From NCBI GenBank assembly GCA_963828165.1, contig CAWHDR010000001.1, positions 320,001 to 384,000 on the forward strand: a stretch of 64,000 nucleotides of DNA. The letters are read 5' to 3'. The notes beneath the pieces were generated by a model that saw only the letters and a list, made by a program, of their open reading frames with translations, was not told the origin of the DNA and ran no database searches. Source of the DNA: an uncultured Chloroflexia bacterium. Its GTDB lineage: Bacteria; Chloroflexota; Limnocylindria; Limnocylindrales; CSP1-4. Positions 6,103 to 9,103 of the stretch are shown piece after piece; the first letter of the stretch is position 1, and each line of letters starts with the position of its first letter. Position numbers and translations under genes: made by a program.

Positions 6103-6684
6103 ATGCCGCGCCGCCGCTACATCTTCGACCCGCCCGAGCGCTTCGTGGCCGGCACGATCGGTGACCCCGGCAATCGGACGTTCTTCCTGCAGGCGCGCGA
6201 CGGTGGCCGGGTGGTCTCGGTCGCGCTCGAGAAGGTCCAGGTCGCGGTCCTCGCGGAGCGACTCGACGATCTGCTGGGCGAGCTCGATCGCCGTGGCGTG
6301 CCCCACGGCGTCCCGGACGAGGTCCTCGCGGATGCGGCCATCGGTCTCGACGATGACGTCTCGGCCCTGGACGAGCCGCTCGTGGAGGCGTTCCGTGCCG
6401 GTTCCCTGACGCTCGGCTGGGACCCGGACGCCGAGCGCGTGCTCCTGGAGGCGCGTGCCCAGGACGAGGAGGGCGAGGCCATCGATCCCGATGACGACGA
6501 CGACGAGGACGAGGACGGGCCGGACCTGCTGCGGGTGCGCCTGACCGCGGCAGCGGCCCGCTCATTCGTGGCCCGGGCCGCCCGGGTCGTGGCGGGCGGC
6601 CGCCCGCCCTGCCCGCTGTGTGGAGCTCCGCTCGATCCGCGCGGTCACATCTGCCCGCGCCGGAACGGCCACTACGTCAACTAG
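6103..6684 (+). CDS. DUF3090 family protein
   Basis: FDPPERFVAGTIGDPGNRTFFLQA, LEK.QV..LA, C-terminal GRPPCPLCG.PLDP.GHICPR.NGH zinc knuckle. TAAAGT -10 at 6091-6096. Confidence 0.9.
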   Translation: MPRRRYIFDPPERFVAGTIGDPGNRTFFLQARDGGRVVSVALEKVQVAVLAERLDDLLGELDRRGVPHGVPDEVLADAAIGLDDDVSALDEPLVEAFRAGSLTLGWDPDAERVLLEARAQDEEGEAIDPDDDDDEDEDGPDLLRVRLTAAAARSFVARAARVVAGGRPPCPLCGAPLDPRGHICPRRNGHYVN

Positions 6685-6728
6685 CGGCTTCGTCCGCGCC
6701 CTGCTCGCAAGCCGGTTCCTCGGCGTCG

Positions 6729-6734
6729 TACACT
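6729..6734 (+). promoter_or_regulatory. Putative -10 element (TACACT) driving the structured leader and BtrH-like gene
   Basis: TANNNT hexamer 6 nt before the first hairpin, the same spacing seen at leaderless starts in this window. Confidence 0.5.
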
Positions 6735-6740
6735 GGCGAC

Positions 6741-6902
6741 GGCGCGTTCCCGCGCCCGACTGCCAGACCGAGCCCCCACGCGGCGCGGCGAAGCGGCAGT
6801 AAAGGGGATCCGGATCCTCGGGAGAACCGGTCGACCATCCGACCGGCCGACGACGTGGCGGTGTGGGCGCGTGCGTCGACGGCCGTGACGGAGAACTGAC
6901 CG
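6741..6902 (+). ncRNA. Candidate structured 5' leader / cis-regulatory RNA (~160 nt)
   Basis: Consecutive stems: GGCGCG/CGCGCC (6741-6756), ACTGCC/GGCAGT (6759-6800), GGGGAT/ATCCTC (6804-6819), CCGGTCG/CGACCGG (6827-6846). SD-like GGAGAA at 6890-6895. Confidence 0.5.
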
Positions 6903-8258
6903 ATGACCACCGACAAGGCCTTCAAGCGGGTCGTGCGTGCGCGCATGGCCAAGACCGGCGAGCGATACGCCGCCGCCCGACGCACGTTGGTCGAGGGCGC
7001 CACAGACGGACGACACGCGCAGGCGACGGCCGACGCCGCCACCGCATCTGGCTATCGGCTGCGCGGCGGCCTGCACCCGGAGACGGCCACGCTGGCCAAC
7101 GTCCTGGCGAATCAGGATGTCGTCTCGGGCGTGACCGGCGAGCCCTTGACCGAGGCCGCGATCCTCGGCATCGGCGGCGGCCTGGGCGCCGGCTACATCC
7201 TCTGGGAGTTCAAGAGCCACGGCGGGCCGATCCTCACCCTCGGATTCCGGAACCAGTGGCAATACCCGTCGATCCCCGGCTGGACGGGCAAGACGCTCGA
7301 CCGGCTCGGCATCGAGCCCGACCTGCACGAGACCGGCGGGACGAAGCGTGCTCGCGAGGCGCTCGATGCGCGCCTGCACGCCGGCGTCCCTGTCATCGCC
7401 TCTGTCGATCTCCAGTCGGTCGGGACCTGGGGCCAGCCCCCCGCGATGTCGGGGGTCTTCGGTCTCGTCGTCGTCGTCTTCGGACGTGACGCGGATGGCT
7501 CGTACCTCGTTGACGACCGTGGCCAGAGCCCGTTCCGGGTACCACCCGCGACGATGGCGGCAGCACGCGGGCGGATCGGCTCGTTCAAGCACCGGATCGT
7601 CGGGCTGCGAACGACGCCCGGACCGATCCCGGCCGAACGGCTTCGCGCAGCGCTGCGCGCGGGGCTCGAGGACCAGGTGGATCACCTGCGATCCCCATCC
7701 GACTCGTTCTCCCTTCCGGCCTGGCGCAAGTGGGCCCGGCTGATGACCGACGCTCGGAACGCGAAGGCGTGGCCGCGGGTCTTCGCCGACGGCCGGGGCC
7801 TGTTCGGCTCGCTGTCGGCCCTTCACGAGAGCGTTGACGGCGGAGTCGGGCCGTGGGGTGGGCACTTGCGAGAGCTGTATGCCGCATCGCTTGACGAGGC
7901 GGCCATCGCGCTCGACAACCCCGCGCTCGGCGACGCGGCGCGGGCATGGCGGGGCGTCGCCGACCAGTGGGAGGAGCTGGCCGACGCGGCGGTACCACCC
8001 GATCTCGATGGCGCTGCCGATGCGGTCGAGGCCGTAGAGGCGCTTCATGAGGCGGTCATGGCCGGCGAACCGGGTCGTTCGCGTGTGAGCGCCGCCGCGG
8101 AGACCGTGTCGGCGATCCGGGATCGCTACGCCGACGCCTTCCCCCTTCCACCGGACCGCGTCCCGGCGATCCTCGAGGATCTCGGCGAGCGGCTCGGCGC
8201 GATCTACGGGGCAGAGGTCGACGCGCTCGACACGACCGCTCGGGCCATCGGCAGGTAA
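6903..8258 (+). CDS. BtrH N-terminal (papain/C39-like) + DUF4872-like protein with extra basic N-terminal helix; catalytic residues appear lost
   Basis: LTEA.ILGIGGGLG.GY, G.PVI..VD, VVVVFG.D, GGHLR.LYA..L.EA resemble the BtrH_N/DUF4872 family. HPET and FGLVVVV stand where HCE and GH..V are expected. Confidence 0.7.
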   Translation: MTTDKAFKRVVRARMAKTGERYAAARRTLVEGATDGRHAQATADAATASGYRLRGGLHPETATLANVLANQDVVSGVTGEPLTEAAILGIGGGLGAGYILWEFKSHGGPILTLGFRNQWQYPSIPGWTGKTLDRLGIEPDLHETGGTKRAREALDARLHAGVPVIASVDLQSVGTWGQPPAMSGVFGLVVVVFGRDADGSYLVDDRGQSPFRVPPATMAAARGRIGSFKHRIVGLRTTPGPIPAERLRAALRAGLEDQVDHLRSPSDSFSLPAWRKWARLMTDARNAKAWPRVFADGRGLFGSLSALHESVDGGVGPWGGHLRELYAASLDEAAIALDNPALGDAARAWRGVADQWEELADAAVPPDLDGAADAVEAVEALHEAVMAGEPGRSRVSAAAETVSAIRDRYADAFPLPPDRVPAILEDLGERLGAIYGAEVDALDTTARAIGR

Positions 8259-8374
8259 AGGGCGCCTCCGCCGCGCGATCGGCATCGATGGGTAGACTCC
8301 CTGCATGACCCGGTCGCGCGGCGCAACCACGCACAACGCCCCCGACGTCGGCTAGTCCGGTCGAGCCGATCAGC

Positions 8375-9103
8375 GTGCCGGATCGCGACGCGACCCTGGA
8401 GGTCCTGCGCGATGGCGCCATCTCGATCGTCGGGCGCGTCATCGGCTCGAGCAACAACGCGCTCTTCGTGACGGTCGCCTGCCCGGAACCCGGGCCGCTC
8501 GAGCCGCTCGCCGCCATCTACAAGCCCACGGCGGGCGAGCGCCCGCTCGACGACTTTCCGGATGGGACCCTCACACGCCGAGAGGTCGCCGCGTGGCAGG
8601 TCTCGGAGTCGAGCGGCTGGGACATCGTCCCGCCGACGGTGCTGCGTGACGGGCCGTTCGGCGAGGGCATGGTCCAGGCGTACGTGGAGCCCGATCCCAC
8701 GGTCGACGTCGTGGAGCTGATCACGTCCGCGGACCCGCGCCTGCGGCGGATGGCCGTGCTCGATGCCGCGATCAACAATACCGATCGCAAGGGCGGTCAC
8801 ATCCTGCCGGTGGACGGCGGCCGGCACATCCACGGCGTGGATCACGGCGTGTGCTTCTCGCCCGTGCCGAAGCTGCGGACGGTGCTGTGGGCGTGGCGCG
8901 GCCAGGAACTGGCGCCCGATGAGATCGATGGTCTCCGGCGCGTCCGAGACGACCTCGATGGGCAGCTCGGGGTGACGCTACGAGCGTTGCTGGGACGGAC
9001 CGACCTACGGGCCACGGTCCGGCGCGTGGATTCGTTACTGAAGAGCGGGCGCTTTCCGCTCCCCTCGCCGACGTGGCCGGCGATCCCCTGGCCGCCGTTC
9101 TAG
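8375..9103 (+). CDS. SCO1664 family protein (PI3/4-kinase-like fold)
   Basis: IYKP..GERPL.DFPDGTL..REVAA, VPPTVLRDGPFGEGMVQ, INNTDRKGGH, GVDHGVCF, KLRTVLW, PAIPWPPF. True start may be leaderless ATG 8305 (TAGACT at 8293-8298) if an indel lies between. Confidence 0.9.
   Translation: MPDRDATLEVLRDGAISIVGRVIGSSNNALFVTVACPEPGPLEPLAAIYKPTAGERPLDDFPDGTLTRREVAAWQVSESSGWDIVPPTVLRDGPFGEGMVQAYVEPDPTVDVVELITSADPRLRRMAVLDAAINNTDRKGGHILPVDGGRHIHGVDHGVCFSPVPKLRTVLWAWRGQELAPDEIDGLRRVRDDLDGQLGVTLRALLGRTDLRATVRRVDSLLKSGRFPLPSPTWPAIPWPPF

Follow-up and report, generated by a model that had tools for sequence, protein, structure and literature searches.

A gene encoding a 451-aa protein with a BtrH-like domain is preceded, in the 64,000-nucleotide stretch of DNA analyzed in the present study (hereafter the window; positions 320,001 to 384,000 of contig CAWHDR010000001.1, from an uncultured Chloroflexia bacterium), by a leader that forms a structured RNA. 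That this RNA is real is, in our judgment, very nearly certain. Its folded core (6741-6884; window positions are used throughout) comprises six helices, P1 to P6, together with a 7-bp pairing between two of their loops (Table 1). The preliminary description of the locus, which was made from the sequence alone, had listed a TACACT hexamer, four consecutive stems, linkers (AAA, 6801-6803; GGGAGAA, 6820-6826), and a Shine-Dalgarno (SD) sequence, all of which are present in the sequence as described. It had also assigned a 30-nt loop to the second stem; the stem stands, whereas the loop contains a hairpin of its own (P3), and the stems are followed by a sixth hairpin (P6).

Table 1. Features of the leader, the downstream gene, and the insertion that carries them.
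Feature	Position	Strand	Basis or remark
Single-gene insertion: leader, gene, and approximately 110 nt	6690..8370	+	Between the DUF3090 gene (6103-6684) and a core gene (8375-9103)
Promoter region within the cassette, with -10-like TACACT (6729-6734)	6700..6734	+	Homology between cassette copies begins at 6700-6735
P1 hairpin, GGCGCG/CGCGCC, loop UUCC	6741-6746/6751-6756	+	Probably the 5' end of the transcript
P2, ACTGCC/GGCAGT (sequence as in the preliminary description); encloses P3	6759-6764/6795-6800	+	Covariation
P3 hairpin, 7-nt loop CCCACGC (6775-6781)	6768-6774/6782-6788	+	Covariation
Conserved AAAGGGG, P4 hairpin (6804-6809/6814-6819), and CGGGA linker	6801..6826	+	Conservation, covariation
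P5 hairpin, the least certain helix	6827-6833/6840-6846	+	One-sided changes in the genus
P6 hairpin, 7-nt loop GUGUGGG (6861-6867)	6845-6849/6880-6884, 6851-6856/6873-6878, 6858-6860/6868-6870	+	Covariation
Kissing pairing of the P3 and P6 loops	6775-6781 x 6861-6867	+	Loop covariation
SD sequence GGAG (6890-6893) and ATG (6903-6905)	6890..6905	+	Sequence; 6-8 nt past the end of P6
Conserved N-terminal peptide MTTDKAFKRVVRARMAKTGERYAAARRTLV, codons 1-30	6903..6992	+	Invariant residues, free third codon positions
Gene for the 451-aa protein: N-terminal motif, linker, BtrH_N, DUF4872	6903..8258	+	Pfam

The fold was assessed in two sets of sequences. The genus set consisted of 30 upstream regions that were aligned with MAFFT without structure input; the wide set consisted of 80 covariance-model matches with 40 pairs. 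Two covariance models, referred to as the first and the second, were used in the searches. In the genus alignment, P1 to P6 and the loop pairing were paired in 95.7% of cells, compared with 32-45% when the partners were slid, and two-sided changes occurred at nine pairs, a number that was reached by 0 of 500 shuffles (covariation score 0.115 vs. 0.075). In the wide set, the alignment of which was fitted to the covariance model and, thus, leans towards structure, 89.1% of cells were paired (shuffled, 69.0%; slid partners, 39-54%), 36 of the 40 pairs had changed on both sides, and the covariation score was 0.465 vs. 0.152.

The individual helices contributed to these results to different degrees. 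P1 was paired in 98.1% of genus cells, with C-G replaced by U-A in 3 sequences, and in 96.7% of wide-set cells, with two-sided changes at 4 of 5 pairs. The corresponding pairing of P2 in the genus was 99.4%, with two-sided changes at 2 pairs (5 of 6 in the wide set), while P3 showed such changes at 3 pairs in the genus and at 7/7 in the wide set. The P4 stem was invariant within the genus, where its loop contained indels, and had changed on both sides at 4 of 6 pairs in the wide set; 94.6% of the genus cells of P6 were paired, with two-sided changes at 3 pairs (9/9 in the wide set). G-U pairs were retained on the plus strand only, as exemplified by a P4 G-U in 29 of 29 sequences, and, because close relatives differ by single-base indels, the leader cannot contain a reading frame. 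Changes in P5 were one-sided only in the genus (94.5% paired), and although all 6 pairs had changed on both sides in the model-fitted wide set, just 80.1% of cells were paired. The 5' arm and loop of P5 could alternatively pair with 6897-6902 and 6889-6892, respectively, and the two helices involved (6828-6833/6897-6902 and 6838-6841/6889-6892), which would form a possible switch over GGAG and the bases before the ATG, were paired in 91.2 and 97.4% of genus cells with one-sided changes only.

When 98 sequences were compared, conservation reached at least 90% at 35 of the 173 window positions, chiefly the P1 core (GGCG/CGCC), AC at 6759-6760, the P3 loop, G.AAAGGGG at 6799-6807, and C.CG at 6817-6820, and these highly conserved positions were mostly unpaired or adjacent to junctions. 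Four residues of the P3 loop (C6775, C6777, G6780, and C6781) reached at least 97%, and the purine-rich AAAGGGG was found in 81 of the 98 sequences.

The pairing between the P3 and P6 loops is the clearest covariation result and the best-supported tertiary contact of this RNA. It was present in 100% of genus cells; furthermore, when the partner was searched for without an alignment in 106 loci with a 7-nt P3 loop, a full 7-nt complement was found downstream in 102, with 11 loop/partner combinations: CUCACGC/GCGUGAG (36 loci), CCCACGC/GCGUGGG (28), CCCACGC/GUGUGGG (13), CUCACGC/GCGUGGG (9), CCCCAGC/GCUGGGG (4), CCCGCGC/GUGCGGG (3), CCCGCGC/GCGCGGG (3), CUCGCGC/GCGCGAG (2), CUCGCGC/GCGUGAG (2), CCCACAC/GUGUGGG (1), and UUCACGC/GCGUGAA (1). 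Shuffled loops found a full complement in 162 of 2094 trials and loops taken from other variants in 992 of 2120, the latter rate being high because G-U pairs make many variants cross-compatible. The proposal in the preliminary description that loop 6772-6781 pairs with 6861-6870 corresponds to this conserved kissing contact. Its other proposal, a pairing of 6751-6765 with 6856-6871, did not hold up as a conserved alternative: a long-range helix in this region (6749-6756/6860-6867), which was preferred by RNAalifold and paired in 99.1% of genus cells with one-sided changes only, was complete in just half of the loci (53 of 106), and the commonest class, CUCACGC/GCGUGAG, retained it in 2 of its 36 members.

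The folding energy of the leader was not distinctive. Its minimum free energy (MFE) was -82.2 kcal/mol, compared with -79.15 +/- 4.56 for 200 shuffles (z -0.67), of which 50 folded equally well, and the minus strand gave a z of +0.46. The preliminary description had counted folding no better than shuffles against a structured RNA, and this was the outcome, although a test of this kind carries no information at 73% G+C.

Strict coupling links the RNA to the opening 30 codons of the gene behind it. A motif search with one genome per species yielded at least 597 pattern matches, at least 533 of which were confirmed for a 33-residue motif, and 80 of these motif-encoding loci were kept for counting. 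An RNA match lay directly upstream on the coding strand in 79 of the 80 loci, in agreement with the suggestion in the preliminary description that the motif would serve as a handle for the upstream RNA, and in 71 of the 79 the final base of the match was also that of the start codon. The motif of these loci reads MTTxKxFKRxVRxRMxKTGExYxxARR. Conversely, all 20 strong RNA matches in the search of the family were followed by an open reading frame (ORF) opening with MTTxKxFKxRVRxRMxKTGE[SR]Yxx(A)RR. A pattern scan of metagenome contigs left 80 stored loci, 3 of which were true by the second model, and the motif followed the RNA in 2 of these 3 as well as in G418. The genome to which the window belongs also contains a second, diverged copy of the RNA (G000:C5:129069-129231, which is L058:1501-1663; 53.3 bits with the first model and 100.6 bits with the second), which was missed by BLAST with the leader as the query. 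The ORF behind this copy (L058:1661-2392) encodes 244 aa, beginning with the shared N-terminal motif and including a domain like AHSA1/SRPBCC. In Nonomuraea gerenzanensis, the motif is encoded at three places of one replicon, with the RNA at the one examined (74.9 bits). Carriage on plasmids was considered and dropped, as nothing was matched except an 11.85-Mb Nonomuraea replicon whose record is classed as a plasmid.

Nine residues of the peptide were invariant in 80 of 80 loci (K8, R12, R14, T18, G19, E20, Y22, A25, and R26); the peptide is rich in K and R, with five basic residues counted as invariant. The mean entropy at codon positions 1, 2, and 3 was 0.64, 0.45, and 1.16 bits, respectively. 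Third positions are, thus, free while residues are invariant, and selection acts on the protein. In an AlphaFold2 model (mean pLDDT, the predicted confidence score, 82.0), residues 4-18 form a helix, G19-R21 a turn, and residues 22-33 a second helix, followed by a low-confidence linker (33-58), and the peptide is accordingly modeled as an independent two-helix unit tethered by a flexible linker. A search of the ESM Atlas with residues 1-34 returned best scores of 0.84 and 0.77, both for unnamed clusters, and the idea that the motif is half of a DUF4287 domain was rejected (hhalign probability 0.27%).

Proteins encoded behind an RNA match had the architectures BtrH_N+DUF4872, DUF4287+AHSA1/SRPBCC, Clp_N, and DUF1835, and some had no known domain. 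In a library of 1.84 billion proteins, in which the upstream RNA was not checkable, the motif profile matched 3819 clusters (50% identity) with E<=1e-3 and 523 with E<=1e-10, and in almost all cases the match began at residue 1. Among 66 proteins of at least 140 residues chosen from the best 150 matches, Pfam assigned DUF4287 to 16, BtrH_N to 12, DUF4872 to 4, AHSA1 to 3, and DnaJ, GerE, Ala_racemase_N, and Polyketide_cyc2 to 1 each.

Regarding its distribution, this is a widespread structured RNA family outside the Rfam catalogue. None of the 4227 models of Rfam 15 matched the window at gathering thresholds, and none matched 6600-7000 at E<=10; in 16 loci from distant taxa, the sole match at E<=1 was a microRNA model (E=0.2) located elsewhere in one locus. 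The full-text literature search turned up no paper on this RNA motif or on the peptide strings, while supplementary motif lists could still name it, and none of six terms looked for in PMC8632094 occurred there. An undescribed structured RNA of approximately 160 nt, as advanced in the preliminary description, is confirmed by these results and by the strong covariation. The resemblance to Ms1 RNA that it suggested is not borne out, no Rfam family having been matched, with the limitation that the presence of an Ms1 model among the 4227 families is unconfirmed.

The first covariance model had matches in 28 of the 151 genomes of the family, which represent 19 of its 49 genera, whereas it matched none of 42 from the sister family, which belongs to the same order and has genomes of approximately 1.1 Mb. 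With the second model, a single genome was matched among 100 others drawn from across the phylum, and the distribution is, therefore, patchy. Among the matches listed in the motif search, record labels covered eight phyla (Chloroflexota, Actinomycetota, Gemmatimonadota, Acidobacteriota, Myxococcota, Planctomycetota, Deinococcota, and Dormiibacterota) and, more narrowly, Myxococcales, Trueperaceae, Blastocatellia, and several orders of Actinomycetota; cultured carriers among them were Isoptericola halotolerans, Planomonospora corallina, Actinopolymorpha rutila, and a member of Planobispora. RNA model scores in distant taxa ranged between 30 and 161 bits. The nearest named relatives of the locus, again among the matches listed, were metagenome-assembled genomes (MAGs) labeled Chloroflexota, uncultured Chloroflexia, or Candidatus Limnocylindrales, which renders doubtful the actinobacterial origin assumed in the preliminary description. 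As a separate observation, approximately 28-32% of words sampled from 6600-7600 also occurred in sequencing runs that many studies had obtained from soil, sediment, and permafrost, a share close to the expected contribution of the near-invariant leader and first codons; close relatives of the leader seem to be common in soils.

The downstream gene and its leader are located in a single-gene insertion. The DUF3090 gene and the gene at 8375-9103 abut in 10 of 11 loci of the same genus without the insert, and homology among the copies is confined to a block beginning at 6700-6735 and ending at 8249-8261; the insertion, which holds a single gene and includes a promoter region of its own, therefore extends approximately from 6690 to 8370. 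Six other genomes contain the block 6700-8258 between flanks that are unrelated, and the end of the DUF3090 gene matches elsewhere in them. Searching 41 genomes at the DNA level revealed the leader and first codons in six others of the genus, at identities of 86-97% (closest leader copies, 95-97%). Identity was 86-97% over 6650-6960, compared with 71-90% over the whole block, and the leader is, thus, better conserved than the gene. The BtrH-like protein itself was found in 39 of 131 genomes of the genus.

Judged by eye, the cassette elsewhere in the genus adjoins a 3' end resembling transfer-messenger RNA (tmRNA; G024, and the 5' flank in G019) or a tRNA-like stretch (G021), and tmRNA and tRNA ends are classic hot spots for islands; neither a target duplication nor a recombinase was seen at the cassette sites. 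Many gene copies in the genus appear to be split into two or more frames or to carry stops (G020, G015, G019, G021, G130, G043, G097, and G119), which may represent gene decay or long-read indel errors; the leader was intact in the aligned copies of G020, G015, G019, and G021. The non-conserved right flank of the insertion contains a -10-like TAGACT (8293-8298) with an ATG 6 nt further on (flank segment 8293-8307), which opens a 16-codon frame before the next core gene. As candidates for the nature of the leader, a repeat or mobile element was rejected because BLAST found one copy in the genome, and a type III toxin-antitoxin RNA was rejected because the leader is single-copy and repeat-free (BLAST), with no terminator and no toxin family.

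The globular part of the encoded protein resembles the BtrH family of carrier-protein-dependent amide synthases in Pfam scores (BtrH_N, 54.3 bits with a cut-off of 29.7; DUF4872, 35 bits with a cut-off of 28) and in its fold, the Foldseek neighbors being AziU3/U2, CcbD, and CtaG (E 1.4e-7 to 1e-3); a search of PDB sequences with the protein profile found nothing below E=0.1. This likeness concerns the protein part only, and the motif and linker are extra here. In contrast to these neighbors, the PDB entry titles of which name Cys, His, and Asp mutants, no Cys or His was invariant among 18 homologues, in which invariant residues of the BtrH-like domain include E84, D198, D205, R222, R224, and R231. 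The BtrH-like domain may be non-catalytic or may use other chemistry. Its assignment as a DarH acyltransferase (NCBIfam NF053550) was rejected, with a score of 33 bits against a cut-off of 300.

The position of the RNA within the transcript was considered from the upstream sequence. In 63 of 78 loci, which come from several phyla, the last base of a TANNNT hexamer lies 6-9 nt upstream of P1, and only 9 such hexamers occur at any other distance within 60 nt. On the basis of this spacing, the RNA probably starts at P1 and makes up the whole leader, which fits the start near 6741 that had been expected. Matches to the RNA had a median length of 170.5 nt. A scan with the sigma-70 consensus recognized no promoter site, and no terminator-like site was found in 6500-7100. 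Helices that would sequester the ribosome-binding site showed no enrichment over shuffles, which leaves a pyrimidine stretch noted by eye in class II, CCUUCUC, unsupported in this role. Contigs of relatives from RNA libraries of three studies cross the leader and gene unbroken (X15, 6704-7216; X16, 6713-7295; X18, 6716-7211), which is weak evidence because such contigs cannot show starts, ends, strand, or level, and because DNA carry-over is possible; stretches that they leave uncovered carry no information.

The strict coupling between the RNA and motif points to the two possibilities raised in the preliminary description, a cis-regulatory RNA or the RNA half of a ribonucleoprotein (RNP), and would be best explained if the RNA and peptide touched each other. 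The RNA and first 30 codons constitute a fixed module, and we suggest that the peptide, a putative basic helix-turn-helix-like hairpin on a flexible linker, would bind, either finished or nascent, to the folded leader of its own or a paralogous mRNA, thereby clamping the structure inside the ribosome footprint and limiting further initiation. Translational feedback of this kind would be portable, moving together with the gene. Initiation is the favored level of feedback, since 6-8 nt separate the end of the fold from the ribosome-binding site. The analysis establishes how the RNA is folded, conserved, positioned, and coupled to the peptide, while the binding, the direction of regulation, and the transcription start are inferences from these results. 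We give the binding of the peptide to its own leader, with a consequent limitation of translation, slightly less than an even chance, while the broader proposal, a portable self-recognizing RNA-peptide module carried by at least four unrelated protein families in eight labeled phyla and serving either feedback or RNP assembly, is in our estimation as likely to be true as false.

Several results weigh against the feedback proposal. The motif occurs without the RNA in one locus, L148 (a contig labeled Nitriliruptoraceae, peptide at 341-439), where the best score in 340 nt upstream was 5.4 bits with filters off, and the RNA occurs without the motif in L250 (592-765, 86.8 bits), where it is followed by a 68-codon ORF. 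L250 was the sole RNA without the peptide that was encountered, and it may be a rearranged or decayed locus. The longest helix capable of sequestering the ribosome-binding site was 5.3, compared with 5.1 in shuffles (105 sequences; spacer between P4 and P6 against the SD window). The peptide resembled no known RNA-binding family: Pfam assigned the motif alone to no family, with one chance match at E=0.07, and the idea that it mimics the ribosomal protein bL34 was rejected because hhalign gave 1.95% against the bL34 of the same genome. Moreover, the coupling could reflect shared ancestry, with a 5' segment of the gene recombining as one piece, and the basic two-helix hairpin could bind DNA rather than RNA.

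Among the other explanations, a riboswitch, in which the leader would control translation of the gene behind it as an aptamer that recognizes an ion or small molecule, and the peptide would have an unrelated role, such as localization or partner binding, is unlikely in our view. Its multi-helix junctions and loop-loop contact are aptamer-like, its covariation is strong, 35 of 173 positions are highly conserved, and the RNA directly precedes the ribosome-binding site; however, what unites a riboswitch regulon is the metabolism of its ligand and not the same N-terminal peptide at the head of proteins that are otherwise unrelated, the downstream proteins point to no common metabolite, and neither a terminator nor a supported sequestering helix was found. 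Less probable again is a role in the course of translation, either as a co-translational device, in which pausing or arrest caused by the peptide inside the ribosome tunnel or at its exit would be read or set by the leader, or as a mere 5' structure that stabilizes the mRNA or enhances its translation. The length of the motif, approximately 30 residues, matches that of the ribosome tunnel, P1 is at the inferred 5' end, and the conserved AAAGGGG is SD-like and lies upstream, whereas the peptide is predicted to be a folded two-helix hairpin that stays on the mature protein, and a simple stabilizer would require neither six helices nor a kissing loop that co-varies.

A stable RNP, in which the leader would be cut from the mRNA or kept on it as a scaffold or cofactor and the peptide would tether the enzyme domains, we consider more doubtful still. 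It accords with the co-occurrence of RNA and peptide, which is strict both ways, with a peptide on a flexible linker, and with a leader that moves with the gene as a unit and is better conserved than the enzyme part. On the other hand, the alignments contain no variable guide-like segment, the RNA is invariably adjacent to the ribosome-binding site, a position that suits the control of initiation better than it suits a free RNA, and there was no sign of a processed RNA, the RNA-library contigs spanning the leader and gene, although contigs cannot show ends. The absence of any function, with chance helices in G+C-rich DNA and the recent spread of a cassette, is scarcely credible: an MFE no better than that of shuffles and the 95-97% identity of the closest copies are in its favor, but compensatory changes occur in every helix and across eight labeled phyla, and distant taxa give matches of 30-161 bits. 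Translational feedback is, thus, favored over a riboswitch, followed by co-translational or stabilizing roles and then by a stable RNP.

Similarities to known systems are partial. Some leaders are bound by their own products in autoregulation, as in the leaders of ribosomal proteins, including the pseudoknot operator of L20, and in the thrS operator, and the present RNA shares with them a structured, often pseudoknotted 5' leader by the ribosome-binding site and a downstream product that is proposed as the binder. In the present case, however, the putative binder is a 30-residue addition to at least four architectures and not a dedicated RNA-binding protein with another RNA target, and neither a mimicry of rRNA or tRNA nor a match to a leader family of Rfam was found. 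Riboswitch aptamers are similar in size (approximately 150 nt), in having several helices, a co-varying tertiary loop pairing, and conserved junctions, and in their position before the start codon; the differences are that the genes suggest no ligand here, that no expression platform was found, and that the coupling to a peptide is strict. HEARO and the omega-RNA of IscB are also structured RNAs that lie just 5' of an ORF, co-occur strictly with it, and are found in variable genomic places, whereas the RNA described herein has no nuclease or transposon gene and no hypervariable terminal segment, precedes small enzymes or ligand-binding domains, and extends to the ribosome-binding site. In the Downstream-peptide motif of cyanobacteria, a conserved peptide is similarly encoded right after an RNA motif, but that peptide is a stand-alone short ORF behind a small pseudoknot, while the peptide in the present study is the N terminus of a full-size protein behind six helices.

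If it is truly undescribed, this RNA represents a large class of bacterial structured RNAs, with at least 533 loci, in lineages that are dominant in soils. The fixed pairing of an RNA with a peptide across unrelated proteins is unusual and offers a testable model of the co-evolution of an RNA element and a peptide tag, and it provides a first handle on the tag-carrying domains of unknown function DUF4872 and DUF4287. The compact pair could also serve as a transferable part for the control of expression. If the proposal of a portable module is true, these bacteria would possess an undescribed kind of cis-acting gene-control cassette.

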